Part shown: piece by piece, positions 3,658 to 37,458 of the stretch | Numbering within the stretch: position 1 is the stretch's first letter | Layout of the letters: every line of letters begins with the position of its first letter | DNA from: an uncultured Polyangiales bacterium | GTDB lineage: Bacteria > Myxococcota_A > Polyangia > Polyangiales > DASUME01 | NCBI GenBank assembly: GCA_964398415.1 | Contig: CAYNOM010000001.1 | Coordinates: 1-47,551, forward strand | Direction: 5' to 3' | Length of the DNA stretch: 47,551 nucleotides | Notes under the pieces: generated by a model | Told to the model about the DNA's origin: nothing | Database searches by the model: none | What the model saw: the letters and a program-made list of their open reading frames with translations, nothing else | Position numbers and translations under genes: made by a program

Positions 3658-3689
3658 CATCATGGTGTCTCGATTTGGGGGACATCGAC

Positions 3690-13932: not shown

Positions 13933-13973
13933 ACTGAGATGCGGGAGCCTACGCGATCGCTCGCCGCACGGCC

Positions 13974-14708
13974 CTAGAACGTGAAGGTGAGCCCGACGAA
14001 GGCGGCCTTGCTGCCGCGCGACACCCAGGGCGCCCAGCTGGCGCTCTGGGGCACGAAGTAGCGGTAGGTATCGAGCGCCGCGGGCACGAGCAGCGAGAGC
14101 GACAGAAGCCGCCCGTCGAAGCCCGACATCTGGCGCATGCCGCCGAGATCGCCGTGGGGATCGGACAGCCCCGTCCACTCGCCCGCGATGTAGAGCGCCG
14201 ACAGAAACACGTTGAACAGCAGCATGCCCTTCTGAAAGGGCAGGTCGCGATGACGTAGATCGGGATGGCGCGAGAGGATGATCTCGTCGGTCAGATGCTG
14301 CACGTTGAAGCCCGCGGAGACGATGAAGTACTTGCCGCGGCGTCCTGCCTCGAAGGGATCGCCGTGACGGTCGATGCAGCGCTCGCCGTCACACTGGATG
14401 CGCGGCGCGATGGCGAAGAAGGGGACGAAGCCCCACACCATCAGTCCGTCGAACACCGGCACGTTGCCGAGCAGCAGGTTGGCCGCGACGTGTCCCGCCT
14501 CGTGGGCGACGAAGGCGCTGACGAAGCCGAGGCTTCCGAGCCCCACCCGACGCGCCAAGGACGACTCGCGCTCCTCGGCGGCGGAGGTCACGACGAGGGA
14601 CGGAGCGCTCGTCGCAGGCTCGGCCCGAGCAGATTCTGAAAGCGCTCCCATGACGAGCGTGCAGGCCACGACGAGCGAGAGCTGGGCGAGCCAGCGCCGG
14701 CGATACAC
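13974..14708 (-). CDS. secreted or membrane protein with an HExxH motif (putative zinc metalloprotease-like)
   Basis: 244-aa ORF with a signal peptide (MYRRRWLAQLSLVVACTLVMGALSESARA), the motif FVAHEAGHV (HExxH), hydrophobic segments and a C-terminal ...GLTFTF. Confidence 0.55.
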   Translation of the reverse strand: MYRRRWLAQLSLVVACTLVMGALSESARAEPATSAPSLVVTSAAEERESSLARRVGLGSLGFVSAFVAHEAGHVAANLLLGNVPVFDGLMVWGFVPFFAIAPRIQCDGERCIDRHGDPFEAGRRGKYFIVSAGFNVQHLTDEIILSRHPDLRHRDLPFQKGMLLFNVFLSALYIAGEWTGLSDPHGDLGGMRQMSGFDGRLLSLSLLVPAALDTYRYFVPQSASWAPWVSRGSKAAFVGLTFTF

Positions 14709-17426: not shown

Positions 17427-17492
17427 CGTACCGCTAAGACCCGGCGACCCACCTCTCGAAAAATGGGCGGCACGCCGCACGAGGAGCAGCAC

Positions 17493-18425
17493 ATGCCGAA
17501 ATGGACGGAAGCCGACATCCCCGAGCTCGATGGCAAGGTGGTCGTCGTCACCGGAGCGAACAGCGGTCTTGGCTTCGAAACGGCACGAGCGCTCACCACC
17601 CACGGCGCCCACGTCATCATGGCGTGCAGAAATCCGGACAAGGCCCAGGCCGCCGCGGCGTCCATTCGCAAAAGCCACCCTCAGGCGTCGCTCGAGCTCG
17701 CGGCCCTCGATCTGTCGAGCTTGTCGTCCGTGCGCGCGTTCTCGAAAGCGCTGCACGACCAGCACGCGCGGCTCGACGTGCTCGTCAACAATGCTGGCAT
17801 CATGGCCATCCCCTACACGAAGACGGTGGATGGCTTTGAGATGCAGTTCGGCACGAACCACCTCGGACACTTCGCGTTGACGGGGCTCGTGCTCGACATC
17901 CTGCTCGCGGCGCCCGCCCCGCGCGTCGTCAACGTGGCGAGCCAGGCTCACTTGATGGGTAAGGTGCGCTTCGACGATCTGGCTTGGGAGCGCGACTACG
18001 CAAAGTGGCCCGCCTACGGCATGAGCAAGCTCGCGAACCTGCTCTTCACCTACGAGCTCGATCGACGGGTCCAGCGCGCGGGCCTCACGCTGCGCTCGAT
18101 CGCCGCCCATCCCGGATATGCCGCGACGAACCTGCAGCACGTGGGCCATGAGCTGTCGGGCTCGAAGATGATGGGCACGATGACACGCCTCGGAAACCCG
18201 ATCCTAGGCCAGTCTGCAGCCATGGGGGCCTTGCCCCAGCTCTACGCCGCGGTGGCCGACGACGCGAACGGCGGTGACTACATCGGTCCACGGGGTCTGT
18301 TCGGAGCGCGTGGCTATCCAACCAAGGCCAAGTCGAACGCGCGCTCGCACGACGCCGACAGCGCGAAACAGCTCTGGGAAGTCAGCGAGCAGCTGACGAA
18401 CGTGCGCTTCGCCGGGCTCGACTAG
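17493..18425 (+). CDS. short-chain dehydrogenase/reductase (classical SDR)
   Basis: ORF 17463..18425 with a likely start at MPKWTE. It has VVVVTGANSGLGFETA (TGxxxGxG), NNAG and the YGMSKLAN (YxxxK) catalytic motif. Confidence 0.88.
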   Translation: MPKWTEADIPELDGKVVVVTGANSGLGFETARALTTHGAHVIMACRNPDKAQAAAASIRKSHPQASLELAALDLSSLSSVRAFSKALHDQHARLDVLVNNAGIMAIPYTKTVDGFEMQFGTNHLGHFALTGLVLDILLAAPAPRVVNVASQAHLMGKVRFDDLAWERDYAKWPAYGMSKLANLLFTYELDRRVQRAGLTLRSIAAHPGYAATNLQHVGHELSGSKMMGTMTRLGNPILGQSAAMGALPQLYAAVADDANGGDYIGPRGLFGARGYPTKAKSNARSHDADSAKQLWEVSEQLTNVRFAGLD

Positions 18426-19168
18426 CGCGGTGACGCGGCATCCTTACGCGCCAGAAAGATGCGGCGCGGCGCGCGTTCGTCCTCCACGTCCGCCTCGTCG
18501 AGCACCTCGACCATGAATCCAGCGCGCTCGAGCAGCTCGACCCAAGTCGCCTCGGGGAACAGCCCGCAGACATGCTCCTCCACGAAGCTGCGCACGCTGC
18601 CGTCGGGCTCTCGTGCGAGGAAGCTATACAGCGTCGCGCTGGTCGTTGCGCTCGGCAAGACCTCGGGAATCCACTCGAGAAAGCGTATGGCGCGCCCGTC
18701 GTCCCCGTCACTTCCCCCACACTCGGTTCCAGGCTCGAAGCGCTCGCGGACATGGTCCGGCACACATACGAAGAGCCCACCAGGGCGAAGGTGCCGATGG
18801 GCGTTCCGAATGGCCAGCTCCAGATCGCCTTCGCTGGTCATGTAGTCGATGGCGTCGTGCGCGAAGACGAGATCGAAGGTCCTCGATAGCGCGAGCGTCC
18901 GCATGTCGCCTTGCACGTGCTCGCAGTCCGGGTTGAGTCGCTTCGACTGGCTCAGCATCGCCTCGCTGATGTCCGTGAGCGTCATGGCGTAGGCCTGCTT
19001 CAGGTAATACGCGTTGTGCCCCCCTCCGCTTCCGAGCTCGAGCATCGTGCGGGACGACGGCGAGCGAGCCTGTATCAGGCGCATGATCTGCTGGTTCTCG
19101 CTCTCGTAGTCCGCGAGGGGAGAGATCAATGGCCACCACGCTGCGAGCGTCTCGTAGAAGGTCTTCAT
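18422..19168 (-). CDS. class I SAM-dependent methyltransferase
   Basis: This is the C-terminal 248 aa of track ORF 18422..19993. The start at ATG 19168 (MKTFYETLAAWW) was checked by hand. Motif I is MLELGSGGGHN. The upstream 275 aa of the track ORF are Arg/Ala/Pro-rich and overlap the hydrolase gene in another frame. Confidence 0.8.
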   Translation of the reverse strand: MKTFYETLAAWWPLISPLADYESENQQIMRLIQARSPSSRTMLELGSGGGHNAYYLKQAYAMTLTDISEAMLSQSKRLNPDCEHVQGDMRTLALSRTFDLVFAHDAIDYMTSEGDLELAIRNAHRHLRPGGLFVCVPDHVRERFEPGTECGGSDGDDGRAIRFLEWIPEVLPSATTSATLYSFLAREPDGSVRSFVEEHVCGLFPEATWVELLERAGFMVEVLDEADVEDERAPRRIFLARKDAASPR

Positions 19169-19188
19169 GTCATCGCCACCAGGTGCCG

Positions 19189-20139
19189 TCAGTCGAGCGC
19201 GCCCTTCCTTTCGAGACGCGCAAGGAACGCGCGGAGGTCCTCCGCCACTCGCTCGGGTGCCTCTTCGTGCGGGACGTGGCCGAGCGTGGGGTACGTGATG
19301 AGCCGGCTCTCCTTCAGCGCCGACACGAACTGCGTCGCCTGCTCGACGCGAGCCAAGCGATCGCGCCGTCCCCAGAGGATCAGCACCGGCCGTTCGATGC
19401 GCGCGAGCAGATCGCGCGTCAGTGCGTGGTCGGGTTCCATGGCGAACTGGGCGATCAGCATCTCGCGCGTGCTTCGACGTTGCAGCGCGCGGTGGTAGCG
19501 AGCGACGTCGCGGGCTCGGATCCGCAGCGGATGGCCGTATGCAAACGCCAAAGACAACGCCGTCGCGGCACGGGGGAGGCCCAGGCGAAACAGCGTGCGC
19601 GTGGGCTCGAACGTCAGCGCGCGAAACGGCCAGGGCGCCCTCTCGTGGAAGCCCGCAGGATCGATCAACACCAGCGCCCGCACGAGCTGCGGGTACTGCA
19701 CCGCCACGTGCAGCGCGACCAGCGCGCCGAGTGAGTTGCCCACGAGCACGGCCTCGCGCAGGCCTAACGCCTGAAGCTCGCAGCCGAGTCGCTGGGCAAA
19801 GCCCGCAGCGTCGGTGCGCCCAGACGGCCACGCGTCGCTCTGGCCAAAGCCTGGCAGATCGAAACGAACGATGCGGTAGGCGTCGCACAGAAGCGCGGCG
19901 AGCTCCTCCCAGGTTTCGAGCGACGCGCCTGAGCCGTGCAACAACACCAGGGCTCGCCCCTCGCCAGTATCCCTGCGGTGCAGCTTCGGCCACGGGCCCC
20001 TGTCCGGAGGGTCCGAACGTCCCTCGGCGGCAGTCACGTCATCCCTCGGCAGCTCATCCTCGGTTTCCGCGGCGCAGGCTACCGCGCCTCTTGCAGAGTG
20101 CCACTCGCCATATAGTTTGTTCACCATTCGGTGCAGCAC
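19189..20139 (-). CDS. alpha/beta-fold hydrolase
   Basis: 316-aa ORF with LVLLHGSGASLETWEEL...FDLPGFGQSD, the nucleophile elbow GNSLGA, and GHVPHEE near the C-terminus. Confidence 0.85.
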   Translation of the reverse strand: MLHRMVNKLYGEWHSARGAVACAAETEDELPRDDVTAAEGRSDPPDRGPWPKLHRRDTGEGRALVLLHGSGASLETWEELAALLCDAYRIVRFDLPGFGQSDAWPSGRTDAAGFAQRLGCELQALGLREAVLVGNSLGALVALHVAVQYPQLVRALVLIDPAGFHERAPWPFRALTFEPTRTLFRLGLPRAATALSLAFAYGHPLRIRARDVARYHRALQRRSTREMLIAQFAMEPDHALTRDLLARIERPVLILWGRRDRLARVEQATQFVSALKESRLITYPTLGHVPHEEAPERVAEDLRAFLARLERKGALD

Positions 20140-20286
20140 CGCGGCGCCTCACTCGCCCCGACGGGGGTCCGCGCGACAGCGTGACGAGCTGGTTTCAAAG
20201 CACCAAATTGTGGGTTGTGCCGCATACGCGGTGTGTGCGAAAGCCCTTGACTGGCGCCAATGTAGGCGTAGAAGCTCTGTCAAACA

Positions 20287-20319
20287 TTGCGCAGCAAGTG
20301 CGTCTTCGCGCCTGCGCAA
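20287..20319. promoter_or_regulatory. dyad symmetry element TTGCGCA-N19-TGCGCAA in the divergent intergenic region (candidate operator or leader hairpin)
   Basis: Read directly: ttgcgca at 20287-20293 and tgcgcaa at 20313-20319. A second, partly overlapping complementarity pairs gcaagt (20292-20297) with acttgc (20327-20332). Confidence 0.2.
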
Positions 20320-20394
20320 GCGAAAGACTTGCGTCCCCGTCCCCTATCGTCGCCGCGAGCGCGCTGCCCGCGCGCACCGCGTTGGAGAGCTTTC

Positions 20395-21789
20395 ATGTTT
20401 CGACGCCGCACCGCCGACCGCCAAGGACACGCCATCGTGATGGGGGCGAGCGTCGCGGGTTTGCTGGCCGCACGCGTGCTGGCGGAGCACTTCGAGACCG
20501 TCACCGTGCTCGAGCGCGATGCCCTCCCGAACGAACCGGACCACCGCAAGGGCCTACCCCAGGCGCATCACCAACACGTGCTGCTGTCACGGGGGCGGGC
20601 GTTGATCGAGCGCTGGTTTCCTGGGTTCGATGCCTCGCTCAAACAGGCGGGAGGACCACTCGCCGACTACACGCGCGACTTCGTCCTCGTCTCGCACGGC
20701 CGTCGCCTGCCTCGCTTCCCTTCCGGCATCGAGCTGCGCCTGTGCCGCCGCATGCACATCGACCATGCTCTCCTCACGCTGCTGGCCGGCGAGCCGCGCG
20801 TACGCGTGCGTGACCGGAGCGCGGTCAAGGGACTGCTCTGGAGCGCTGACCGAAGCCGCGTGCTGGGCGTCGAGCTCGCGAGCGCCGAGCGCTTGCACGC
20901 CGAGCTGGTGGTCGACGCCACCGGTCGCGGCTCGCGCGTTTCGAGATGGCTCTCGGACGCTGGCTACGAGGCGCCGCGCGAGCAAGTGGTGGACGCGCAC
21001 CTCGGCTACGCGACGCGGTTGTTCGAGCGCGCTGAGCACGACGCGGCCGACTTCCGCGCCGTGGAGGTGGCCGCAGTGCCTCCGCACAACCCGCGCGCGG
21101 CCGGCCTCTGGGAGATCGAAGGCGGTCGTTGGCTCTTGACCTTGATCGGCACGGCCGGACAGCACCCGCCCACGGACCACGAAGGCTACATGGCGTTCGC
21201 GGCGCAGCTCGCCGACCCGCTGGTGTACGAGACCATTCGGCGCGCCCGCCCACTTACCGATGCGGTGCCCTTCACCGGCACGGCCAATCGCTTCCGACGC
21301 TACGAGCGCTTGAAGCGCTTTCCGAGCGCGTTGCTGGTCGTGGGTGACGCGCGCTGTGCGTTCAACCCACTCTATGGGCAGGGCATGACGATCGCCGCGC
21401 TCGAGGCGGACGCCCTGCACCGTGCATTGCGCAAGTCGCGCAGCAGAGGTGAGCTCGACCACCTCGCGCTGCGTCGTCACTTCGAGCGCAGCATTGCCCC
21501 AGTGCTCGCCACCGCATGGTTGCTGGCAACCTCGGAGGACCTGCGTTGGCAAGAGACCGAGGGCGAGCGCAACCCGCTTTCGTCGCTGGCGCTCGCCTAC
21601 TTCGAGCAGCTGGTGGCCCTGAGTCCCGAGAGCCCTGCACTGATCGAGACGTTCCTCCGCATCACCAATTTCGAGCGTAGTCCGCTCGCGCTCGCCCGCC
21701 CGCGAATCCTCGTCGACCTCGCGACGGCGTACGTCCGCCGCAGACAGCCTCGCGCCCCTGGGCCGTCGACGAAACCGCTCGCCGCGTGA
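20395..21789 (+). CDS. FAD-dependent monooxygenase (group A flavoprotein hydroxylase-like)
   Basis: ORF 20287..21789 with the likely start at ATG 20395 (MFRRRTADRQGHAIVMGASVAGLLAARVLAE). Supporting motifs are a dinucleotide-binding GxSxxG, VVDATGRGS, and GDARCAFNPLYGQGM (the GD...P..GQG flavin motif). Confidence 0.85.
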   Translation: MFRRRTADRQGHAIVMGASVAGLLAARVLAEHFETVTVLERDALPNEPDHRKGLPQAHHQHVLLSRGRALIERWFPGFDASLKQAGGPLADYTRDFVLVSHGRRLPRFPSGIELRLCRRMHIDHALLTLLAGEPRVRVRDRSAVKGLLWSADRSRVLGVELASAERLHAELVVDATGRGSRVSRWLSDAGYEAPREQVVDAHLGYATRLFERAEHDAADFRAVEVAAVPPHNPRAAGLWEIEGGRWLLTLIGTAGQHPPTDHEGYMAFAAQLADPLVYETIRRARPLTDAVPFTGTANRFRRYERLKRFPSALLVVGDARCAFNPLYGQGMTIAALEADALHRALRKSRSRGELDHLALRRHFERSIAPVLATAWLLATSEDLRWQETEGERNPLSSLALAYFEQLVALSPESPALIETFLRITNFERSPLALARPRILVDLATAYVRRRQPRAPGPSTKPLAA

Positions 21790-21835
21790 ATCGCCAACAG
21801 CTTTCGCTGCTGCACTTCGAGCCTCTGGAGAGAAG

Positions 21836-22921
21836 ATGGACTTCGTATTCGCGACGCAGGCAGTGAACCCGCTCCCCAGCCTGAGGCTTCCGTTTCTTGC
21901 CTCTCTGGCTCGCCCACGACGTGACGGGCGCTTCCGCTTCAGTCCCGAGGAGCGACGGTTCTACCTGATGCAACACGGCTCGAGCACGAGCGCGTACTTC
22001 AACCTGCAGCCTGGAGTCGAGTACTTCGACATGCCCGGGGTCGGCTTCCTGAGCTACTTCACCTACGAGGGGCTACTCGGGCGTGAGCACCTCGTGTTCA
22101 CAAACCCCGTGTGCTCCGACCAGAACCTCGGTCTGCTGATCGACGCCTTCTTGCGCGAGGAGGGAGGCGACCCTGTGTTTGTTGGCATCGATCCCGCGGG
22201 CGCCCGCGTGCTCGAGTCGCGGGGCTACTCGGTCAACCAGATGGGCGTGGAGTTCAACGTTCCCGTGCAGACGTTCAAGGTCACCGGGCGTGGCATGAAG
22301 CACCTGCGCTCAGTGCAGCACTACGCTGAGCGCGGCGTCACGGTATCGGAGCTCCCCTGGTCCGAGGTGGATGCGAGCGAGGTCTCGCGCATCTCGTCGG
22401 CCTGGCTCGGCAAGAAAGCCGTCAAGACCCGTGAGATCAAGCTGCTGAGCCGTCCTCCGGAATGGGAGGACGCGTGGGGCGTGCGCAAGTTCTACGTCTT
22501 CGTCGAAGGACGCCTGGTCGGCTTCGTGTTCTTCGATCCTTTCTTCCGGGATGGTCGCATCGTCGGCTACTGCGCCAACATCCTGCGCAGCCTGCCGGAC
22601 GTGCAGCCTCGGGGCGTTCTCGACTTCGCCATCCTCGAAGCCATCAAAGTCTTTCGGCAAGAGGGAATCGAGACTTTGGCTCTGGGTCTTGCACCTTGCT
22701 ACGACGTCCAGAGCCACCTCAACGAACGCGTCATCCTGCGGCGACTGCTGCAGCTGTTGTTTCGACGCGGCAGCTTTCTGTACAGCTTTCAAGAGCTCGC
22801 CTTTCACAAGACGCGTTGGCGAGGTGCAGAGCAACGCGTGTACGCGTGCCTCCGGGGGACACGAGGGGTCAGCGACCTGCGCGCGGCGATGCTCGCCCTG
22901 CGCAGCATGAACGTGGTCTAA
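21836..22921 (+). CDS. stand-alone DUF2156 protein (homologue of the MprF/LysX C-terminal aminoacyl-phosphatidylglycerol synthase domain), no membrane domain
   Basis: 361-aa ORF with GGAGA 5 nt upstream of the ATG. Length and sequence pattern match the soluble catalytic domain of aminoacyl-PG synthases: YLMQHGSSTSAYFNLQPGVEYF...GFLSY, KHLRSVQHYAERGV, WLGKKAVKTREIKLLSRPP and LYSFQELAFHKTRW. No hydrophobic helices are visible. Confidence 0.7.
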   Translation: MDFVFATQAVNPLPSLRLPFLASLARPRRDGRFRFSPEERRFYLMQHGSSTSAYFNLQPGVEYFDMPGVGFLSYFTYEGLLGREHLVFTNPVCSDQNLGLLIDAFLREEGGDPVFVGIDPAGARVLESRGYSVNQMGVEFNVPVQTFKVTGRGMKHLRSVQHYAERGVTVSELPWSEVDASEVSRISSAWLGKKAVKTREIKLLSRPPEWEDAWGVRKFYVFVEGRLVGFVFFDPFFRDGRIVGYCANILRSLPDVQPRGVLDFAILEAIKVFRQEGIETLALGLAPCYDVQSHLNERVILRRLLQLLFRRGSFLYSFQELAFHKTRWRGAEQRVYACLRGTRGVSDLRAAMLALRSMNVV

Positions 22922-22936
22922 CGCTCGGAGTGACTG

Positions 22937-23605
22937 ATGGAGAAGACCCACGACAACGACTACGGCGTGGTTGCCGCTGTCTATGACGCCGCCGCGCACC
23001 TCTACAGCGGTGGTCAGATTCGCGCTTGCAAGCAGTTCCAGATTCCAGAGATCAGGCCGCGCGATCGCGTCTTGTATGCGGGCGCTGGCACTGGCTATGA
23101 CGCGGCCCTCGCCGCACGTCGTGGCGGACGCGTCACCGTCGTCGAGCTCTCTCGGAAGATGGCCGACCGAGCGCGGCGCACCTTCGTCGATTTCGGCGTG
23201 GTCGACGATGTCGAGCTCGTGGTCGGCGACGTGCTCGCGCACGATCGTCCCGATACTTACGACGTCGTGGCGGCAAACTTCTTCCTCAACGTGTTCTCCC
23301 CCGAGCTGATGCCGCGTGTGCTGTCGCACCTCGCGTCGCAGCTTCGCCCCGAGGGCAAGCTGCTGATCGCAGACTTCGCGCCGGCGCGCACCACGCGGCT
23401 CGAGCGCGGCTTTCAGCAGGCCTATTTCGGCCTTGCGCGCACGGCGTTCCAGTTGCTGTCCAACAACGCAGCTCACCCCCTGTACGATTACGCGGAGGTC
23501 TTGCGATCGCTCGGTCTCGAGCTCACCTGGAGCCAGGACTTCCCGCTCTTCGGGGTAGGGCCCGCCTGGTATCGATCGATGGTCGCCCATCGAAGAAGCG
23601 CATGA
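22937..23605 (+). CDS. class I SAM-dependent methyltransferase
   Basis: 222-aa ORF with motif I VLYAGAGTGYDA, an acidic motif II residue in VVELS, and post-I/III-like DVVAANFFLNV...LRPEGKLLIADF. Confidence 0.85.
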   Translation: MEKTHDNDYGVVAAVYDAAAHLYSGGQIRACKQFQIPEIRPRDRVLYAGAGTGYDAALAARRGGRVTVVELSRKMADRARRTFVDFGVVDDVELVVGDVLAHDRPDTYDVVAANFFLNVFSPELMPRVLSHLASQLRPEGKLLIADFAPARTTRLERGFQQAYFGLARTAFQLLSNNAAHPLYDYAEVLRSLGLELTWSQDFPLFGVGPAWYRSMVAHRRSA

Positions 23606-23609
23606 GCCG

Positions 23610-25970
23610 ATGTACGCCGCGCTGGTTCGTTTGCGTGTTCCGATAGCCGTCGTGCTCTGCGCAGTCGTGGCGACGGCAGCGCTGGGGATCGCCCGCGCGG
23701 TCGTACCAGACAACTCGATCACGGCCTGGTTTCTGCCTGACGATCCAGCGGTGCAGAGCTACGAGCGCTTCCACGAGCACTTCGGCAACGATGAGGTGAT
23801 CCTCATCCAAGTGCACGAGCCGACGGGCGTGTTGACGCGAGACGTCCTCTCGCGTCTGCAGAAGCTCACGCACGCACTCGAGAACATCGACGGCATCGCC
23901 CGGGTGCACTCGGTCGTGACGGTCGAGGACGCCATCGACACGCCGGAAGGCATTCGCTTCGAGCGCAGGTTCAGCGATCCCTTACCGGACGATGCCGGCT
24001 TGATGCAAGCGGCGGCCGCGGCGCGCAACAGCGTCTTGTTTCGTGACCGCCTGCTGAACCCCTCGGGCACGCGCACGCTCTTGTGGGTCGAGATGGCGGT
24101 GTCCGATCGCGTGGACGACGAGCGCGGTCGCATCGTTCAGCAAGTCCGTGCGCAATCGGACCTCATCCTCGCTGGGCTCGAGCATCCCATGGCCGGATTC
24201 GGCGTGACCTACGCTGGGATCGACGAGCTCACCAAGCGCGACTTCGGGCTCTTTCTGGGTCTGTGTTACGCGGTGATGGTGGCATTTCTCGCTTGGGTCT
24301 TTCGCGAGCGCAGATTCGTCGTTGCCACCCTCGGCGTGATGCTTCTCAGCAGCGTCGCGGCGCTCGGGAGCCTCGGACTCGCGGGACATCGCATCAACAT
24401 GGTCACGTCCGTGCTGCCGACGTTGATCCTGGTCCTCGGCATCGCAGATGCGATTCACATGCCGGCTGCGTTCATGCTCGAAGAACGCGCACGTCCTGAT
24501 GCATCGCGTTTCGACATCGCGGTCGCGGCGCTGCGCCGTGTCGCGCTGCCCTGTCTGCTCACCAGCGCCACCACCATGGCGGGCTTCGCCTCGCTCGCCG
24601 TCTCGAAGATGGCGGTGATGTCCCAGCTCGGGCTGTTTGCGGCGATTGGGATGGCAGCGGCCTTGCTGCTGACGCTTTCGCTGATGACCGTCGCGTACAT
24701 GTCTGGCGCGAGGGCGCCCGCCACGGCGGCCCAGTCGTGGCTGTCGGCTTTGCTCGAAGCAGCCCACGCCTTCGTGACGCGGCGCACGGCTTGGGCCGCG
24801 GGCGTCCTGTTGACGTTGTCGGGGTGTGCTGTCTGGGGGGCACTGCAAGTCGAGGCAGACACCTATAGCCTCGGCTATCTTCCCGAGGACAGTCGCATCG
24901 TGACGGAGCACGAACAGATCGTCCGCGGCTGGGGCCACTACAGTCCGCTCGACTACACGATCGTGCCAAAGGAGGGGCAGCGCGTCGACAGCCCCGAGCT
25001 GTTGTCCAAGGTGGCCGAGTTCGTGCGCGAGGCGAGTCAGCTCGAGCAGGTTCACTACGGATTCGCAGCCCACGACTTCCACCGCGCGGTCGCTCAGGCA
25101 TTCGGTGCAGAGGTTCGCGCCGACGAGCCGCTCGCCAGCGACGTGATGGCCCAGGTCGGCCTGTTGCTCGAGGGCCAGGCGCAAGACCTCGAGTGGGATC
25201 AAACGAAGCCCGCCTACTTCGACAACTTCCTCGCACCGTTTCGCACGCGCGACGCCGACCTGGGCCGCGTCACCTTGGTGGTGGACATGATGAGCGCCCG
25301 GGGATTCGCGGAGCTGTTGGCCAAGCTCGAGCCCATCGCCGAGCGCACGCTGGGCGAATACGCTGCGCTGTCGCCGAGCGGCTACCTGCCGCTGTACGTC
25401 GGCGTGATCGACCACGTGATCTCGGCGCAGGTGCAGAGCTTCTTCATGGCGCTCGGCATCATCTTCGCCATCATGCTGATCTGGACGCGCTCCCTACGCC
25501 TTTCGTTGATCAGCCTCGTTCCGAATGTGTTCCCCGTGCTCGTGATGCTCGGTGTGATGGGTGCGTTCGATATCGACCTCGACATCGCCACGGCGACGGT
25601 GGCTGCCATCGTATTTGGCGTCGCGATCGACAACACCATCCACTTCATGCACCACTATCGCGAAGGGAAACGGCAGGGCCTCTCGTGGGACGATGCCCTC
25701 GCGCACTCCTATCGCAGTGCCGGTCATCCCGCGTTGATCACGGCGTGCTCGTTGCTCATCGGTTATCCCGTGCTGATGTTCGCGGCGGTCAAGCCCGTGT
25801 TCTATTTCGGGTTGCTCACGACGCTCGCTACGGTAGCCGCGCTCGTCGGAGATCTGTTGCTCTTGCCGCTGTTGCTGCGTTTCTTCGATCGTGCCCCTAG
25901 CCTTGCACCGTCATCTCGCGCGACGACGGCCGAGGTTGCGCTCGTCGACGGGCTTTCTTCCAGGAGATGA
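23610..25970 (+). CDS. MMPL/RND-superfamily transporter (HpnN-like lipid exporter architecture)
   Basis: 786-aa ORF with two repeats of one TM helix, a soluble loop and five TM helices. The N-terminus has the typical MMPL pattern (DNSITAWFLPDDPAVQSYERFHEHFGNDEVILIQV). The start lies 4 nt after the methyltransferase stop. Confidence 0.85.
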   Translation: MYAALVRLRVPIAVVLCAVVATAALGIARAVVPDNSITAWFLPDDPAVQSYERFHEHFGNDEVILIQVHEPTGVLTRDVLSRLQKLTHALENIDGIARVHSVVTVEDAIDTPEGIRFERRFSDPLPDDAGLMQAAAAARNSVLFRDRLLNPSGTRTLLWVEMAVSDRVDDERGRIVQQVRAQSDLILAGLEHPMAGFGVTYAGIDELTKRDFGLFLGLCYAVMVAFLAWVFRERRFVVATLGVMLLSSVAALGSLGLAGHRINMVTSVLPTLILVLGIADAIHMPAAFMLEERARPDASRFDIAVAALRRVALPCLLTSATTMAGFASLAVSKMAVMSQLGLFAAIGMAAALLLTLSLMTVAYMSGARAPATAAQSWLSALLEAAHAFVTRRTAWAAGVLLTLSGCAVWGALQVEADTYSLGYLPEDSRIVTEHEQIVRGWGHYSPLDYTIVPKEGQRVDSPELLSKVAEFVREASQLEQVHYGFAAHDFHRAVAQAFGAEVRADEPLASDVMAQVGLLLEGQAQDLEWDQTKPAYFDNFLAPFRTRDADLGRVTLVVDMMSARGFAELLAKLEPIAERTLGEYAALSPSGYLPLYVGVIDHVISAQVQSFFMALGIIFAIMLIWTRSLRLSLISLVPNVFPVLVMLGVMGAFDIDLDIATATVAAIVFGVAIDNTIHFMHHYREGKRQGLSWDDALAHSYRSAGHPALITACSLLIGYPVLMFAAVKPVFYFGLLTTLATVAALVGDLLLLPLLLRFFDRAPSLAPSSRATTAEVALVDGLSSRR

Positions 25971-25973
25971 AAC

Positions 25974-26465
25974 ATGATCACGATACGCGTCGAGACTCAC
26001 AAGCATGCGATCGTCCACGCCACGTTGCGTTCGGTCTTCGAGCTGCTCAGGAACGTGGAGGACGTCGCGCGCATGATGCCTGGCGTCGAGCGCACCGAGT
26101 CCGTGGGACCAGGCCGTTATCGCTGCGTGCTCAAGCCCCAGTCGACCCTGGGCATGACGTTCCAGGGCGACTACGTCTGCGCGTATCGAGACAATGGACG
26201 CGACGAGATTTCTTGGACCTCGCCCGAGGGCAACATGAAGTCGGAGGGCACGTTTCGCATCGCGGGTCGTGATCATGCCGTGGCGCTGTCCCTCTCGGTC
26301 GTCAGCGATGTCGAGCTGCCTTTTCCACGGATGGTACGCGTGCCAGCCCAGAAGTATGCGGAGTACGTGACGAGTCGCGGCGTGGACGTTCAGCTCGCGC
26401 GCATTCGAGACCGCCTCGAGGCCAAAGTCGCGAGCTACCCACAGGTCGCAACGCTCGCCGAGTGA
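25974..26465 (+). CDS. SRPBCC-superfamily (START/CoxG/polyketide-cyclase-like) ligand-binding protein
   Basis: 163-aa ORF. The pattern RVETHKHAIVHATLRSVFELLRNVEDVARMMPGVE...G..KSEGTFRI is typical of SRPBCC folds. The start lies 3 nt after the MMPL stop. Confidence 0.6.
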   Translation: MITIRVETHKHAIVHATLRSVFELLRNVEDVARMMPGVERTESVGPGRYRCVLKPQSTLGMTFQGDYVCAYRDNGRDEISWTSPEGNMKSEGTFRIAGRDHAVALSLSVVSDVELPFPRMVRVPAQKYAEYVTSRGVDVQLARIRDRLEAKVASYPQVATLAE

Positions 26466-26755
26466 AGATCTGCCTGGGCGTGTGAACAACTCGGCCGCCG
26501 CACTGTGACCGACTCGCAGACAGGGCGACCTCACCCGTCCGCGAGAATCGCTTGTATCTTCGAGCGACACATCGTGGCACGCAGCGTGCAGTGGCAAGCC
26601 CACGTCGCATGCGCTCACGGGCCTGCATGCGCAGGAGCGAGGGTTGACCGATGTGTGTAGACGTTGCGGAGAACGAGACCTTACCTGGTGGGCCGCCCAA
26701 CACGGCAACGCGAGCGGCCAGGGGGGCGAACAGGCAGCGTGATCGCGTGAACACA

Positions 26756-27706
26756 ATGCTCGCCCTGGGCCTGCTCGCGCTCGGCGGGTGCCAGGACAGC
26801 GTAGGTTTCGCGGTCGACGACGGCGGGGCCATCGACGGCGGGGCCATCGACGGAGAGGCCCCGATCGGCTCAGATGCCGACACCAGCTCGCAGGGCACGG
26901 ACGGCGCAGCATCGGGCGACGGCAGCCCGAGCGGTGGCGACGGCTGTATGCCACCCGACATGCTCCTCGTGCTCGACCGCACGATGAGTATGTCCAAGAC
27001 CCCCGCCGGCCCTTCACCCGAGAACACGACGGAGGGCCGTCGCGCGTCGAAGTGGCACCTCGCGATCGCTGCGTTCGAAACGCTCACGTCGCAGCTCGAC
27101 GGAACGATTCGCTTCGGCCTCGAGCTCTTTCCCAAGGACCCGGGCAAAGACCAATGCCTGACCCTCGCACAACGCATCGAAGGTCAGACCGCCACGAACG
27201 CGAAGTGCCAGGGCGGTGAAGTGTTGGTAGTGCCAGCGCTCGAGACAGGCGATGCCATCGCGAGTGCGCTCGATCCGGAGACAACCCTCTTGTGCACGAG
27301 CACGCCGATCGGAGCGGGCCTGGCCACGGCGCGCGCGGCCCTCTCCGACATCGCGAGTCAGGCGCGCAAGCAGTACGCCGTGCTGCTCACGGATGGCAGG
27401 GACACGTGCGACGAGTCGCTGTCGCTCACGAATGCGCAGAACCTCGTCTCCGACGGCGTTGGCCTGTACGTGATCGGATTCGATGGCTCGGGCAAGGGCG
27501 TCGACAACGGCCACCTCAACGACCTCGCCTGCGCGGGCCACACGGCCAAGGGCTTTCCTGACGCATGCGTGGAAGACGCCGCAGGCAACTTCACCGCGAA
27601 GGATCGCGAGGGCGCCGCGCTGTACATCCTCGCCCAAGATCAGACACAGCTGATCGACGAGCTGAAGAGCGTGGCCGGCCAGGTCTGCTGCAACTGCGTG
27701 ATCTGA
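26756..27706 (+). CDS. von Willebrand factor A (VWA) domain lipoprotein
   Basis: ORF 26651..27706 with the likely start at ATG 26756 (MLALGLLALGGC, lipobox). The MIDAS-like motif is LVLDRTMSMS. Later blocks GLELFP, TPIGAGL and VLLTDGRDTC fit a VWA fold. The C-terminus is Cys-rich (VCCNCVI). Confidence 0.8.
   Translation: MLALGLLALGGCQDSVGFAVDDGGAIDGGAIDGEAPIGSDADTSSQGTDGAASGDGSPSGGDGCMPPDMLLVLDRTMSMSKTPAGPSPENTTEGRRASKWHLAIAAFETLTSQLDGTIRFGLELFPKDPGKDQCLTLAQRIEGQTATNAKCQGGEVLVVPALETGDAIASALDPETTLLCTSTPIGAGLATARAALSDIASQARKQYAVLLTDGRDTCDESLSLTNAQNLVSDGVGLYVIGFDGSGKGVDNGHLNDLACAGHTAKGFPDACVEDAAGNFTAKDREGAALYILAQDQTQLIDELKSVAGQVCCNCVI
26822..26851 (+). repeat. perfect 15-bp tandem duplication (ggcggggccatcgac x2) inside the VWA lipoprotein linker
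   Basis: Read directly: 26822-26836 equals 26837-26851, encoding GGAID-GGAID. A degenerate third copy follows. Confidence 0.9.
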
Positions 27707-28773: not shown

Positions 28774-29670
28774 TCACTTCAAACTCTCGCCGAGGCCGGC
28801 GAGAGCGCTGAGTAGGTCTTGTTCTTTCTGATACAGATGCGCCGCGAGCAGCGCGGTCGCGGCATGTGAGCCGAGGAGATGAAACAGCTCCTGGTCGACC
28901 TGGACCCAGGCGTGCTTTTGCTCGAGCAGCTGCACGATGGCGATCACCCCCACGGTTTGGTTGTCGACCAGCATGGGCAACACGGCGAGCGGGCTCTGGA
29001 GCGAGCCCTCGCCGAGCGGATCGCCCTGCTTGACCGACGACACCCCGCTCGCGCACACGCTGCCGATCGCGCCTTGGCCTATCGTGATCGGCACGAGCTC
29101 GCTCTCGATGATGCCCTCGGAGCCCACCGGCATGGCGTGCGTGCCCTCGTCGTTCAGCACGTAGACCGCGAAGCGTTCAGCGCCCACCAACTGCGCGAGC
29201 AGCTCTTTGATGTGCTGCAAGACGTGAGCGGGCTTGAGCGTCGAGTGGAGCTGAAAGCTCGCCACGTACAGATTGGCCAGGTCGTTCAGCTCCTGCTCGA
29301 TGGCCGCATAGCGCCCTTCGTGACGCCGTGAGGCCTGCTCGAGCTGACTCGACTTCTCGAGCAGACTGCGCTTCTCTTGCTCGAGTCGCTCGATGTTGCG
29401 CAGAAAGTCGCGGATCGCGTCGTCGCTCTTCACCTGAGCCCGGAGCGCGGCGTTGTCGGCCTCGAGCATGTTGATGCGGTGCCGCAGCCCGTCGTTCTCG
29501 TGAAGCAGCTCCTCCGTGAACTCGACGCCCTTGCGCAGGAAGTTGCGCACGAAGGCCTCACGCTCACGGGTCAGCTCCCCGGATGAGCTGGGTCTCGGAT
29601 GAATGGTCGGGCTGTCGTCGTCCATTTCGCTCGTGCTCTCGCTCATGTTCCCATGCCCATGCGTGGTCAC
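28774..29670 (-). CDS. coiled-coil plus GAF-domain protein
   Basis: 298-aa ORF. The N-terminal heptad-rich segment reads RHRINMLEADNAALRAQV...IERLEQEKRSLLEKSSQLEQASRR. It is followed by a GAF-like block: LKPAHVLQHIKELLAQLVGAERFAVYVLND...GAIGSV...LAVLPMLVDNQTVGVIAIVQLL. Its start overlaps the cheB stop (ATGA). Confidence 0.7.
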   Translation of the reverse strand: MTTHGHGNMSESTSEMDDDSPTIHPRPSSSGELTREREAFVRNFLRKGVEFTEELLHENDGLRHRINMLEADNAALRAQVKSDDAIRDFLRNIERLEQEKRSLLEKSSQLEQASRRHEGRYAAIEQELNDLANLYVASFQLHSTLKPAHVLQHIKELLAQLVGAERFAVYVLNDEGTHAMPVGSEGIIESELVPITIGQGAIGSVCASGVSSVKQGDPLGEGSLQSPLAVLPMLVDNQTVGVIAIVQLLEQKHAWVQVDQELFHLLGSHAATALLAAHLYQKEQDLLSALAGLGESLK

Positions 29671-30761
29671 ACAATGAGATCTGCAAGATGGGTCGCCAGT
29701 GCACCGAGGGGCAGACTGCGATCGACCTCACCCGTGCGGACCGCTGCGCCCGGCATGCCGTAGATCACGGCCGTTTCGGGCGCTTCGGCGTACACCGTCC
29801 CGCCATGCGCCTTGATCGCGACCACACCGCGCGCACCGTCGTCGCCCATGCCCGTGAGCACGACGCCGATCACGCGCTCGGCCGCCACCTCGGCTGCGCT
29901 CTTGAAGAGTCGATCGACTGAAGGGATGAAGCGATCGCCTGGCGCAGGATCCACCACGCTCGCCGCAAAGCCGTTTCCGAACGTGACGATCTCGAGGCAC
30001 TTGCCGCCAGGACACAACACGGCCTTGCCCGGCGTGAGTGGCTCGAACTCGCGCGCCTCACTGACCTTGAGCCCTCCGAGCTTGTGCAAGCGCTCGGCGA
30101 AGGTTCGCGTGAAGCGCTCGGGCATGTGCTGCGCCACCACCACCGCCGCATTGGAGGCGGGCTTGAAGTGGGAGAACACCTCGACGAGCGCGCTCGGTCC
30201 GCCCGTCGAAGCGCCGATCACCACCAGCTTGTTCACCGCTTGATCACGCTCGACCACGACCGGCGGCGCGGGCGCGGGCATGGCCGTCGCCGGTTGGCTG
30301 AAGACGCCGGTCAAGGGGCCTCCAGCGCGCACGACGCGGCGCTTTGGATCTCGGCCCGCCGGGGTGAGCTGGCGGACCATCGACACCTTCTCTCCGAGCT
30401 CCTGCTCGATGGCGGACAGGTCGCTCGCGATGGTGCGCGTCGGCTTGGCGATGAAGTCGATGGCTCCGAGCTCGAGCGCGCGAAAAACGTTCTCTCGAGC
30501 AGAGTTGCCGCTGACGACGATCACCGGCGTGGGCTGGCGTGCCATCAACAGGCGCAGGAAGGTGAAGCCATCCATGCGCGGCATTTCGAGGTCCAAGGTG
30601 ATCAGATCGGGCGTCAACGAGGCCGCGAGCTTCAGCGCTTCGTCGCCATCGGCGGCTTTGCCGACGACCTCGACCCCGTCGATGTTCATCAACAGGTCTC
30701 CAATCGTGCGTCGATTGAAGGCTGAATCGTCTACGACCATCACGCGCAACTTGGCGGTCAT
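29667..30761 (-). CDS. cheB: chemotaxis response regulator protein-glutamate methylesterase
   Basis: 364-aa ORF. The receiver domain has VMVVDDS and LITLDLEMPRMDG. The CheB catalytic domain has VVIGASTGGPSAL, VVAQHMP..FT..FA.RL and LTGMGDDGA. Confidence 0.93.
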   Translation of the reverse strand: MTAKLRVMVVDDSAFNRRTIGDLLMNIDGVEVVGKAADGDEALKLAASLTPDLITLDLEMPRMDGFTFLRLLMARQPTPVIVVSGNSARENVFRALELGAIDFIAKPTRTIASDLSAIEQELGEKVSMVRQLTPAGRDPKRRVVRAGGPLTGVFSQPATAMPAPAPPVVVERDQAVNKLVVIGASTGGPSALVEVFSHFKPASNAAVVVAQHMPERFTRTFAERLHKLGGLKVSEAREFEPLTPGKAVLCPGGKCLEIVTFGNGFAASVVDPAPGDRFIPSVDRLFKSAAEVAAERVIGVVLTGMGDDGARGVVAIKAHGGTVYAEAPETAVIYGMPGAAVRTGEVDRSLPLGALATHLADLIV

Positions 30762-31642
30762 CGAGTCTCTCCCTTTCCTAGAGGAGGCTTTGCGGGAGTC
30801 GGTGGCTTTCGGTATGCGAGATCGGATGAGAGATGCATGAGCTCGAATGCGGTTGACACGTTGAGGAGTGACTCGCTGTGCCCGAGGAACAGATACCCTT
30901 CGGGCTGCAGGCGCTCGTAGAAGCCCTCGATCACTTTACGCCGTGACGCGGTGTCGAAGTAGATCAGTACGTTACGGCAGAAGATCGCTTCTACCATCCC
31001 GATCACGCTGTAGCGTGCCGCATCGAGCAGGTTGAGGTGCGCAAAGTTGCACATGGCGCGAATGTCCGCGCGCACCGTGCGCCCCTCCGAAGTCTCCACG
31101 AAGTACTCCGCATACTGCTCGGGCATGCTGCGAAAGCTTGACGGACCGTAGGTCGCCCGGCGCGCCACCTGCAGCACGCGACGCGAGATGTCGTTGCCGA
31201 TCACGCGTACATCCCAGCCCTCGAACATACCCGATTCGCGGATCAGAATGGCGAGCGTGTAGACCTCCTCGCCCGTCGAGCAGCCAGCGCTCCAGATCGA
31301 GAGCCTGCGCATCCGACGACCACGCTCGTAGAGCATCGGCAGCACCTCACGCTGAAACGCGCGTAGCTGGTACTCCTCGCGAAACAGGTAGGTCTCGTTG
31401 GTGGTGAGCACATCTACCGCGCGCTCGATCTCCGCCTTGGCATCCGGGTGATAGCGCAGGTAGTGGTAGTACTCGCCGAAGTCGGCGATATCGAGATCTT
31501 GCAGGCGTTCCTTGAGCTTGCGTTCGAGCACGAACTGCATGTCGTCCGGAAAGCGAATGCCGCAGAAGTCGTTGACCAAGTCCCGCAGGAGGCGAAACTC
31601 CTCCGGCTTGATCTTCGGGCCCGTATCGAAGAGCAAGGGCAC
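30758..31642 (-). CDS. cheR: chemotaxis protein-glutamate O-methyltransferase
   Basis: 294-aa ORF with TTNETYLFRE, RLSIWSAGCSTGEEVYTLAIL, VIGNDIS, FCRNVLIYFD and LFLGHSES. Confidence 0.93.
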   Translation of the reverse strand: MPLLFDTGPKIKPEEFRLLRDLVNDFCGIRFPDDMQFVLERKLKERLQDLDIADFGEYYHYLRYHPDAKAEIERAVDVLTTNETYLFREEYQLRAFQREVLPMLYERGRRMRRLSIWSAGCSTGEEVYTLAILIRESGMFEGWDVRVIGNDISRRVLQVARRATYGPSSFRSMPEQYAEYFVETSEGRTVRADIRAMCNFAHLNLLDAARYSVIGMVEAIFCRNVLIYFDTASRRKVIEGFYERLQPEGYLFLGHSESLLNVSTAFELMHLSSDLAYRKPPTPAKPPLGKGETR

Positions 31643-31643
31643 C

Positions 31644-33695: not shown

Positions 33696-34207
33696 TTTCC
33701 CCCCGTGAGCATCGGTGGAATGGTGCTCGTGTCGATTTCGTCGGCGGCCGACGCGACGACCTGAGGATCGACGACGAACACGAGGCTGCCCTCGTGCGAA
33801 TAGACGTTGGCGATCCCGCGACGCTCCGCACCGGAGCCGATCTCGGGCAGGTTGCGTTGCTCTCTGTGGCCAGCCCCAAACACGTCGGTCACGGCGTCCA
33901 CCACGAGCGCAACCGGCTGCGCACGATGGGGCAGGCGCACGATGATCCACTTGGTGCGGCGCGTCGCCTCCGTGCGCGGGAGCCCGAAGCGACAGCGTAG
34001 ATCGACCACGGGCAAGACGTCTCCACGATGGTCTGCGACGCCAAGCACCTCGGTGGGCGCGTGGGGCAAGGTGACCGTCGGCAGTGGATTGACGATCTCA
34101 CGCACGATGTGAATCTCGACGGCATAGCGCACCTCTCCCACGAGGAAGCTCACCAGATTCTTCGCCTGGTCCGAACGGTAACGCGTGGTGGCATCGTGCT
34201 CGGTCAT
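33692..34207 (-). CDS. cheW: CheW-like coupling protein (second copy)
   Basis: 171-aa ORF with LVSFLVGEVRYAVEIHIVREIV..P.VT.LP.AP..VLGVADHRGDVLPVVDLR...IIV...VALVVDAVTDV, a CheW domain pattern. Confidence 0.88.
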   Translation of the reverse strand: MTEHDATTRYRSDQAKNLVSFLVGEVRYAVEIHIVREIVNPLPTVTLPHAPTEVLGVADHRGDVLPVVDLRCRFGLPRTEATRRTKWIIVRLPHRAQPVALVVDAVTDVFGAGHREQRNLPEIGSGAERRGIANVYSHEGSLVFVVDPQVVASAADEIDTSTIPPMLTGGK

Positions 34208-36884: not shown

Positions 36885-36913
36885 AAAACGCGCGCCACAA
36901 GGCGTGCCTCAGA

Positions 36914-37306: not shown

Positions 37307-37458
37307 AGTCAAAGCTGCCTCCCCTTCTGCACAGCCCTCGGGGGATCGTAACCGAAACGGCAATTGCTTTGAAAGATCGCGGGAAAGGATCACGAAATCG
37401 TAGCGGGAGAGTGCGGCATGCTGCGCATCTCACCACAGGGTGCGCGCGCGTAAGTGCT

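Follow-up and report, generated by a model that had tools for sequence, protein, structure and literature searches.

We describe here a gene locus within a 47,551-nucleotide stretch of DNA, referred to in its entirety as the window, from an uncultured Polyangiales bacterium (contig CAYNOM010000001.1 of GenBank assembly GCA_964398415.1). Five genes on the + strand at 20395-26465 encode, in order, a monooxygenase dependent on flavin adenine dinucleotide (FAD), a free-standing DUF2156 protein, a methyltransferase (MT1) dependent on S-adenosylmethionine (SAM), an MMPL transporter of the resistance-nodulation-division (RND) type and a small SRPBCC protein. An alpha/beta-fold hydrolase gene diverges from them across a spacer of 255 bp, measured from the hydrolase start to the first gene (Table 1). 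The open reading frames (ORFs) of the window confirm the five same-strand genes, their intergenic gaps of 46, 15, 4 and 3 nt and the upstream spacer, all of which had been given in a preliminary description made from the DNA alone. Comparison with related loci indicates that the real unit is a module of epoxidase, DUF2156 protein and methyltransferase, conserved across phyla and associated with a hydrolase, to which this lineage has added the exporter and the SRPBCC protein.

Table 1. Features of the locus; positions are those of the window.
Feature	Position	Strand	Length (aa)	Remarks
Short-chain dehydrogenase/reductase (SDR), PRK06197 family	17463..18425	+	320	convergent; locus membership doubtful
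Second class I methyltransferase (MT2)	18422..19168	-	248	downstream of hydrolase; variable, outside core
Alpha/beta-fold hydrolase	19189..20139	-	up to 316, start uncertain	divergent; probable partner esterase
Presumed promoter region for both sides	20140..20394			hydrolase/epoxidase divergent intergenic region; role presumed
Class A FAD monooxygenase, MonCI/Lsd18 olefin-epoxidase family	20395..21789	+	464	first gene of core trio
Predicted free-standing DUF2156 (LPG_synthase_C) aminoacyl-tRNA-dependent transferase	21836..22921	+	361	no flippase or membrane domain
Class I SAM-dependent methyltransferase (MT1)	22937..23605	+	222	third gene of core trio
MMPL/HAE3-type RND transporter	23610..25970	+	786	lineage-specific accessory
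SRPBCC (CoxG/START-like) protein	25974..26465	+	163	lineage-specific accessory; no signal peptide

The starts of the first two genes required some consideration. The ORF of the first gene opens at TTG 20287; the ATG at 20395 is the start called by the Joint Genome Institute (JGI) on a near-identical contig and also coincides with the position at which the alignment to MonCI begins. For the DUF2156 gene the JGI call corresponds to an alternative start at Met45, with which the first gap would measure 178 nt. The residues that precede Met45, up to 'ERRFYL', are conserved in a 68%-identical homologue, and the alignment to solved structures of aminoacyl-phosphatidylglycerol synthases (aaPGS) begins at residue 37, that is, before Met45. 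The start at 21836 was therefore kept. The single transcription unit proposed in the preliminary description agrees with the common strand and the short gaps, but gene order is conserved for the first three genes only. Scans for sigma-70 promoter and intrinsic terminator consensus sequences returned no more than in shuffled sequence, so that spacing is what argues for co-transcription of all five genes.

The first gene product matches MonCI with an E value of 1.1e-74 across its residues 4-443 and Lsd18/LasC with E values of 8e-64 to 5e-63 (phmmer against the PDB); the identity to MonCI and Lsd18 is about 40% over the whole length. The motifs GASVAG, DATGRGS and GDARCAFNPLYGQGM line up with those of MonCI, and the FAD-binding motifs common to the two proteins are GASxAG, DATGRGS and GD..FNP.YG.GM. 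In Pfam the flavoprotein lies under every cut-off, with sub-threshold matches only, including a weak one to PF04820. MonCI is a class A flavin monooxygenase which epoxidizes the olefins of a long polyene bound to an acyl carrier protein (ACP), and squalene monooxygenase is a close structural homologue of it (PMC10560226). Judged by its full-length homology and FAD motifs, the window flavoprotein is a MonCI/Lsd18-type class A olefin epoxidase, for which a long hydrophobic polyene substrate would be expected. The polyether context of MonCI and Lsd18 is, however, absent from the window, in which there is no modular polyketide synthase (PKS), dedicated ACP or epoxide-opening cyclase (MonB or Lsd19); the partner here is a predicted tRNA-dependent transferase, which in some genomes lies within the same polypeptide. 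We also considered a squalene or sterol epoxidase, and this was rejected: squalene monooxygenase matches the FAD-binding N-terminus only (E 0.16), and the window contains neither a cyclase nor sterol genes.

DUF2156 is the catalytic domain of the aaPGS enzymes, which use aminoacyl-tRNA as donor. The match of the second gene product to PF09924 (E 9.3e-44, 150.1 bits against a cut-off of 27.5) covers profile positions 4-297 of 298, and lysyl-phosphatidylglycerol synthase (LysPGS; 4v36) is matched with an E value of 1.5e-15. The AlphaFold2 (AF2) model, with a predicted local distance difference test (pLDDT) score of 89.5 and 35 disordered residues at the N-terminus, has a tandem GNAT fold which resembles the solved aaPGS catalytic domains. 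The best Foldseek matches to this model are the aaPGS structures 5vrv, 4v36 and 4v35 (E about 1e-19, template-modelling (TM) scores 0.69-0.80), after which the tRNA-dependent Sbb17 and FemX are ranked. In an alignment of 11 sequences of the family, Trp190, Lys194, Glu200 and Arg206 of the basic helix 'WLGKKAVKTREIKLLSRPP' are invariant, as are Arg251 (in 'ANILR') and His324-Lys325-x-Arg327; by alignment only, the positions of the basic helix, Arg251 and Lys325 correspond to aaPGS positions. In the characterized enzymes the basic helix binds the tRNA acceptor stem and a basic residue polarizes the aminoacyl ester, and the Arg and Lys positions have been proposed for catalysis in aaPGS, FemX and ErdS (PMC6103681, PMC13219428). 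With an aaPGS-like predicted fold and the conserved helix, Arg and Lys, the window protein would be competent as an aminoacyl-tRNA transferase. It scores 73 bits against the cut-off of 600 for NF033480 and is not an MprF, since the flippase fusion that defines MprF is absent. No tRNA or aminoacyl-tRNA synthetase genes were found in the window.

MT1 matches Methyltransf_25 with an E value of 2e-14 and exceeds the cut-offs of Methyltransf_25, 11, 23 and 12. Its NCBIfam and PDB matches cover the SAM-binding core only, from which the target atom is not inferable. The flavin monooxygenase, MprF-C-like DUF2156 protein and methyltransferase of the preliminary description all stand, the first through its full-length homology to MonCI and Lsd18 despite the low Pfam scores and the second in both the profile and the fold search. 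The divergent hydrolase, which lacks a signal peptide, matches Abhydrolase_1 (E 3.8e-32) and has a C-terminal His and the nucleophile elbow GNSLG.

The association of these genes was examined in related loci. The DUF2156 protein is one of a distinct family whose members are stand-alone and 320-380 residues long; indexed search gave 77 clusters of this family and exhaustive search 179 at E ≤ 1e-30. Species-representative genomes, metagenomes and contig look-ups provided 106 loci, 78 of them distinct, which were searched with the window proteins; 66 distinct loci could be evaluated in that they have enough flank on both sides of DUF2156. An epoxidase lies immediately upstream of DUF2156, or is fused with it, and an MT1 gene lies immediately downstream in 13 of the 66, MT1 alone is found in two, the epoxidase alone in none, and neither in 51, mostly from Marinobacter and its relatives. 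Trio carriers include a Polyangiaceae metagenome-assembled genome (MAG; 53% identity), Oleiphilaceae, a Pseudomonadales MAG and unassigned metagenome contigs. Stops and starts within the trio often overlap by 4 nt in these loci. In a rough neighbour-joining tree, which carries no support values, the trio-linked transferases form two coherent groups apart from the lone Marinobacter-type genes.

The same partnership is seen within single polypeptides. Epoxidase and DUF2156 form one ORF in the DNA of three loci from different assemblies (L038 8456-10951, 831 aa; L042 8624-11056, 810 aa; L079 6362-8914, 850 aa), and further fusions of this kind are the proteins P0206 and P0212. DUF2156 is joined to MT1 in P0201, which is 55% identical to the window protein, and in P0207, and to an alpha/beta hydrolase, in both orders, in P0232, P0284 and P0343. 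It is also found fused to a thioester reductase (NAD_binding_4; P0287) and to a glucose-methanol-choline (GMC) oxidoreductase (P0253). Hydrolase homologues lie within 6 kb of DUF2156 in 5/9 trio loci with long flanks, compared with 1/38 non-trio loci, and a further homologue is present in L079. By this co-occurrence and by the fusions, the divergent hydrolase is shown to belong with the trio system. Taken with the neighbourhood statistics, the fusions are strong evidence for a single pathway in which the epoxidase, the transferase, the methyltransferase and a hydrolase take part. The joint action of flavoenzyme, DUF2156 protein and methyltransferase that the preliminary description proposed is thus borne out, in different phyla and with no flavoenzyme found without the methyltransferase.

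The other two genes of the row behave differently. An MMPL or SRPBCC homologue occurs at none of the 66 other loci, and the whole five-gene arrangement was found only on contigs about 96% identical in DNA to the window. Beyond these, only SRPBCC recurs, in one relative with a 68%-identical DUF2156 protein and at another position, directly after MT1. The five genes therefore do not form the conserved entity for which they had been taken, and of the aminoacylated, oxidized, methylated, carried and exported product envisaged for them the coupling of the enzymes is supported, while a conserved linkage to MMPL and SRPBCC is not. The preliminary description had also extended the locus to the hydrolase, MT2 and SDR genes. 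The hydrolase belongs to it as described above; MT2 and the SDR are less convincing. MT2, which starts at MKTFYE and has Methyltransf_25 and 11 matches, is dispensable, since a ~96%-identical contig (L052) has 2 bp (7209-7210) in place of the 734 bp at 18446-19179; no MT2 homologue adjoining the trio was found in the related loci. The last ~8 codons of MT2 persist in L052, a sign of deletion in its lineage and not of insertion in the window. The SDR (adh_short E 2.8e-31, NF004846 E 1e-122) adjoins the hydrolase in near-identical strains only, and the SDRs of the Oleiphilus and L051 loci described below belong to another subfamily, which the window SDR does not detect as a query.

MMPL/RND transporters export lipids, as do the mycobacterial MmpL proteins and, for hopanoids, HpnN. 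The window transporter has two stretches of MMPL similarity (PF03176, E 1.6e-15, 57.4 bits against a cut-off of 20.5) and a Patched sterol-sensing domain match (E 5e-6), and its nearest solved relative is HpnN (E 7e-7). It matches the HAE3 family TIGR00921 with an E value of 5e-48, but its 163.7 bits fall below the trusted cut-off of 351.9, so that this placement is approximate. The closest relatives, from Myxococcales, Vicinamibacterales and other groups, are 37-48% identical. The three whose context was read (45-48% identical) do not adjoin a trio; they lie in a cluster ordered as AMP-binding enzyme, DUF3419 (BtaA-like), MMPL and a fusion of an HMG-CoA-reductase-like domain with an APH/EcKL kinase (L056 4290-12012, L057 5871-13695 and L058 1740-10245, with a UbiA-like gene in L058). 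This cluster is conserved, and we did not recognize it as a described one. Since these relatives sit in another lipid-type cluster, the subfamily seems to serve lipid-type pathways and to have been recruited here. A 163-aa gene product of L056 has no Pfam match and no similarity to the window SRPBCC protein.

SRPBCC proteins bind hydrophobic ligands. By sequence the assignment of the fifth gene product is marginal (COXG, 22.7 bits against a cut-off of 22.2); an uncharacterized Marinobacter protein (3p9v) is matched with an E value of 7e-9. Its AF2 model, of moderate quality (pLDDT 66), has the beta-alpha-alpha-beta6-alpha topology of a helix-grip fold. Foldseek returned 349 matches at E ≤ 1e-3, the first being 3p9v (E 4e-12, TM 0.75), followed by START proteins, abscisic acid (ABA) receptors, CoxG and polyketide cyclases; all of the 50 matches listed belong to the SRPBCC superfamily. 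Both accessory calls of the preliminary description are therefore upheld, that of the MMPL exporter by its Pfam score and that of the SRPBCC protein by its predicted fold. The search for SRPBCC homologues gave only three. On the contig that encodes the 68%-identical DUF2156 protein, one of them (64% identical) comes immediately after the trio, in the order MOSC, epoxidase, DUF2156, methyltransferase, SRPBCC and then a gene cut by the contig end. The MMPL search recovered no close fragment from that contig, and a metagenome scan with the SRPBCC alignment gave no matches.

These observations bear on whether the pump and the SRPBCC protein take any part in the pathway. It is possible, though we consider it doubtful, that the locus is a mosaic in which the trio and the hydrolase are one unit and the last two genes an unrelated lipid-transport pair, merely co-transcribed with it; this would replace the export step only. 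The absence of both genes from the other evaluable loci, the membership of the MMPL relatives in a different conserved cluster and the position of SRPBCC directly after MT1 in a relative for which no close MMPL fragment was recovered all agree with such a mosaic. So does the G+C content, which falls to 0.64 over 22-26 kb from 0.67-0.69 on the upstream side, although the downstream side is itself 0.64-0.67. The junctions of 4 and 3 nt, the retention of the arrangement in near-identical strains despite their loss of MT2 and a DNA divergence of about 4%, and the continued linkage of SRPBCC to the trio in the 64-68%-identical relative speak against it, as does, weakly, a second, unrelated START-like protein beside the Oleiphilus trio. 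From the junctions, the retention and the position of SRPBCC in this relative we argue that in this lineage the pump and the SRPBCC protein operate together with the trio, and we regard this as the least secure part of the model.

The surroundings of the trio in other genomes give some indication of its acceptor. In L059, L064 and L076 it is embedded among unrelated genes, which makes it likely that the trio is sufficient in itself and draws on a substrate of wide availability. The trio of L055 follows a free-standing thioester reductase (TIGR01746, E 2.5e-41) and is itself followed by ACP and ketosynthase (KS) genes. In L051 there is again a thioester reductase upstream and, downstream, a co-directional array of the type II PKS/aryl-polyene-like kind, with a ketoreductase (KR), two ACPs, four KS/chain-length-factor (CLF) genes, a hydrolase, a thioesterase and ApeI-like dehydratases. 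Reductase genes are also nearby in L031 and L060. In Oleiphilus the order is Baeyer-Villiger monooxygenase (BVMO), esterase, SDR, a 256-aa secreted protein and then the trio. As such contexts can deliver long-chain alcohols and the epoxidase is of the polyene type, a long-chain olefinic alcohol or other neutral lipid would be the most economical acceptor.

Two further observations were made in these neighbourhoods. Conserved proteins of 244-256 residues with an N-terminal signal-like segment lie beside the trio in Oleiphilaceae (L010 7683-8453, L009 2361-3200, L014 7756-8457 and L038 11639-12373); they have no Pfam or NCBIfam match and only a weak match to 3qsz, the structure of a bacterial START domain (E 0.021), and profile-profile comparison of the 256-aa Oleiphilus protein with the window SRPBCC protein showed no relationship. 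A distant group of DUF2156 proteins (L111-L114, e.g. L112 10001-12014), with 31-34% identity and no epoxidase or methyltransferase, has a convergent alpha/beta hydrolase gene immediately downstream.

Many of the carriers are hydrocarbon-degrading Oleiphilaceae and Marinobacter, and the BVMO, esterase and SDR that the Oleiphilus trio follows are typical of sub-terminal alkane or ketone oxidation. Together with the RND pump of the window, this might suggest detoxification or catabolic conjugation, in which an alkene or other hydrocarbon, exogenous or endogenous, would be epoxidized or hydroxylated, conjugated with an amino acid, methylated and pumped out in a manner reminiscent of phases I-III of xenobiotic metabolism. 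We consider this improbable. We know of no DUF2156 enzyme that acts in catabolism or detoxification, and the expense of charged tRNA would be unusual for such a purpose. Furthermore, the trio is also present in Myxococcota, where it adjoins biosynthetic type II PKS genes, and the loci of the hydrocarbon degraders have no pump.

In our view, the best overall explanation of the data described above is a lipid-tailoring module with its own esterase, to which handling and export functions have been added in this lineage; we put its probability at roughly one half. From the observed arrangement, domain and fold identities, conservation across phyla and fusions, we infer a donor, an acceptor class, an order of reactions, a role for the hydrolase and an export step along the following lines. 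The core trio (20395-23605) would act on a hydrophobic acceptor that bears an olefin, likeliest a neutral lipid such as a long-chain alcohol of fatty, polyketide or isoprenoid type. The DUF2156 protein, by analogy with every characterized DUF2156 enzyme, would transfer an aminoacyl group from the cellular pool of charged tRNA to a hydroxyl of the acceptor and form an ester. The flavoenzyme, given its identity to MonCI and Lsd18, would use NAD(P)H and O2 to epoxidize a C=C bond of the same molecule. MT1 would then methylate the product, possibly on the nitrogen of the new amino group or on an oxygen. The hydrolase would most likely cleave the aminoacyl ester again for turnover or homeostasis, as ErdH does for ErdS and AhyD or PA0919 for aaPGS. 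The SRPBCC protein and the HAE3-type pump would likeliest bind the hydrophobic product and transport it from the inner membrane outwards, in place of the flippase domain of MprF. More tentatively, the product could be a bacterial lipid not seen before: an epoxidized long-chain polyene, isoprenoid or fatty alcohol carrying a methylated amino-acid ester of tRNA origin, with its own turnover esterase and, in this myxobacterium-like lineage, a dedicated SRPBCC chaperone and RND exporter to the envelope.

Several observations weigh against the lipid-tailoring reading. None of the proteins in this DUF2156 family has a known product, donor amino acid or acceptor, and as 51 of the 66 members are lone genes the transferase must have a role that needs neither epoxidase nor methyltransferase. 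The Asp of the 'DLMR' motif of both solved aaPGS domains is Asn here (Asn248 in 'ANILR'), which is invariant in the 11-sequence alignment and present in at least 90% of the sequences in one of 36; we found no source in the literature on a catalytic role for this Asp, and the difference is given as an observation only. The window contains no PKS, fatty-acid synthase or terpene genes, nor a gene for a special acceptor, and the neighbourhoods that suggest an alcohol are heterogeneous, each being found in few loci. The hydrolase might just as well generate the hydroxyl of the acceptor, as by cleavage of a BVMO-derived ester in Oleiphilus, instead of removing the amino acid. The presence of polyketide cyclases among the fold matches means that the SRPBCC protein may be an enzyme. 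Finally, the promoter and terminator scans lend transcription no support, and with MMPL and SRPBCC missing from all the other evaluable loci the export step is argued from gene spacing.

We have also weighed an MprF-like modification of a membrane glycerolipid such as phosphatidylglycerol (PG), cardiolipin or diacylglycerol (DAG), in which the pump would replace the flippase and the epoxidase and methyltransferase would alter acyl chains or the amino group, for instance to give an N-methylated betaine-like head. LysPGS, alanyl-phosphatidylglycerol synthase (AlaPGS) and LpiA share the Pfam family and tandem-GNAT fold of the window protein, the basic helix, the catalytic Arg and Lys positions and the possession of hydrolase partners, and the nearest solved relatives by both sequence and fold are aaPGS domains. 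A ubiquitous acceptor would also suit a module that is self-contained in several genomes, a paired hydrolase is common for aaPGS enzymes, and the MMPL relatives examined adjoin a BtaA-like DUF3419 head-group enzyme. On the other hand, the identity to aaPGS is only about 20%, the 'DLMR' Asp is replaced, there is no N-terminal flippase domain, and the transferase belongs to a separate stand-alone family in which an RND pump, as a gene of its own, is found in this lineage only and is missing from every other trio locus. Fusions to a polyene-type epoxidase and to a thioester reductase are hard to explain for a reaction on the PG head group. The hydrolases of aminoacyl-PG are extracytoplasmic (PMC7334510), whereas the window hydrolase has no signal peptide. 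We therefore think a glycerolipid acceptor unlikely, if less so than detoxification.

The closest system in logic to the lipid-tailoring module is fungal. ErdS with ErdH, and ErgS, carry out the tRNA-dependent synthesis of ergosteryl-aspartate and ergosteryl-glycine with a dedicated hydrolase (PMC7334510, PMC8913301, PMC13219428). The erdS and erdH genes are divergent and ErdH removes the amino acid, and the aaPGS hydrolases AhyD and PA0919 are paired with their synthases likewise (PMC7334510). In the fungal system a soluble DUF2156 enzyme acts on the hydroxyl of a neutral lipid and a cytoplasmic alpha/beta hydrolase is encoded divergently from it; the window shows this divergent layout of transferase and hydrolase. 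The window system, however, is bacterial and lacks a fused aminoacyl-tRNA synthetase, its hydrolase is of the Abhydrolase_1 family and not PF07859, and the transferase has an epoxidase and a methyltransferase as partners, at times in fusion proteins; the window is without sterol genes. As regards the exporter, HpnN and the MmpL-type HAE3 proteins likewise combine an RND transporter of two MMPL/SSD halves with neighbouring lipid-tailoring genes, but the similarity is distant and the pump is not conserved with the trio. Aryl-polyene clusters pair an MMPL exporter with a lipid carrier, and the trio of L051 abuts an array of this kind; the carrier in the window is a cytoplasmic SRPBCC protein and not a LolA-like periplasmic one.

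Among natural products the closest precedent is that of valanimycin and azodyrecin. VlmA of the valanimycin pathway reportedly transfers serine from seryl-tRNA to a hydroxylamine made by a flavin monooxygenase, an analogy that had been drawn in the preliminary description. VlmA and Ady7 are free-standing PF09924 transferases which work with a flavin monooxygenase and, for azodyrecin, a methyltransferase on a product with a long, fatty-acid-derived alkyl chain; flavoproteins like Trp halogenases (PF04820) occur near some groups of VlmA proteins, and VlmB and VlmO are highly conserved beside VlmA (PMC9379638). A pathway of this type here would have the flavoenzyme N-hydroxylate an alkylamine, the DUF2156 protein form an O-aminoacyl hydroxylamine that gives rise to an N-N (azoxy) bond, and the methyltransferase form a methyl ester, and the weak PF04820 match of the window flavoprotein would be in keeping with it. 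The flavoenzyme is, however, a homologue of single-component class A epoxidases and not a two-component enzyme of the VlmH/VlmR type, and an N-hydroxylase was dropped as the main model. No acyl-CoA-dehydrogenase-like (VlmH-type), flavin-reductase or aminotransferase domains were seen in the window or, in general, beside the trio, where VlmB and VlmO were not searched for directly by sequence. The methyltransferase Ady1 is of another family, PF04072 (PMC9379638), and these pathways are actinobacterial. As the flavoprotein is not an N-hydroxylase, the valanimycin analogy is a poor one, and we regard an azoxy product as very improbable. The full-text literature searchable here, outside which most subscription journals lie, yielded no description of the trio, in agreement with the earlier statement that the gene combination matches no described pathway.

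An acceptor-supplying biosynthetic cluster elsewhere in the window was considered and rejected; the remaining genes encode regulators, chemotaxis proteins, AroA, TrpF, RecO, ABC transporters and similar proteins. A chemosensory cluster at 28774-37393 on the - strand comprises a GAF protein, CheB, CheR, a large protein with HEAT repeats, a hybrid of CheA and CheW and a response regulator. Two paralogous PAS-GGDEF-EAL genes lie in tandem at 5138-7303 and 7186-9222 on the - strand; as their predicted ORFs overlap by about 118 nt, the downstream one (5138-7303) probably starts later than listed. Long candidate ORFs at 12235-14178 (- strand) and 3675-5000 (+ strand) have coding-like codon-position G+C and no Pfam match, their strand being provisional in DNA of high G+C. 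Synteny with L052 ends upstream of window position 13975, where L052 carries a Peptidase_S8 gene. A second length difference between the two strains, window 26591-26842 against L052 14623-14765, lies upstream of or within the N-terminal part of a von Willebrand factor A (VWA) gene.

To our knowledge, non-translational tRNA-dependent aminoacylation has few acceptors: the bacterial lipids PG, cardiolipin, DAG and glucosyl-DAG, fungal sterols and a small number of antibiotics from actinomycetes. The conserved and repeatedly fused partnership of transferase, polyether-type epoxidase and methyltransferase, spread over Myxococcota and marine Gammaproteobacteria, points to a further class of acceptor and product. 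The trio is a small unit of three genes in about 3.2 kb, the natural fusions of 810-850 residues are convenient targets for biochemical and structural work, and the cultured relatives that carry the transferase alone (Marinobacter nauticus, M. xestospongiae, Halovibrio and Vreelandella) can be used to find the basic acceptor. Should the export reading be true, the locus would show how an RND pump can take over from the MprF flippase when the transferase is free-standing. If the proposed function of the trio is true, it would extend the known range of MonCI-type epoxidases past the actinomycete polyethers, and on the more tentative reading of the product the fungal steryl-amino acids would have their first counterpart in bacteria, a non-glycerolipid aminoacylated in a tRNA-dependent manner.

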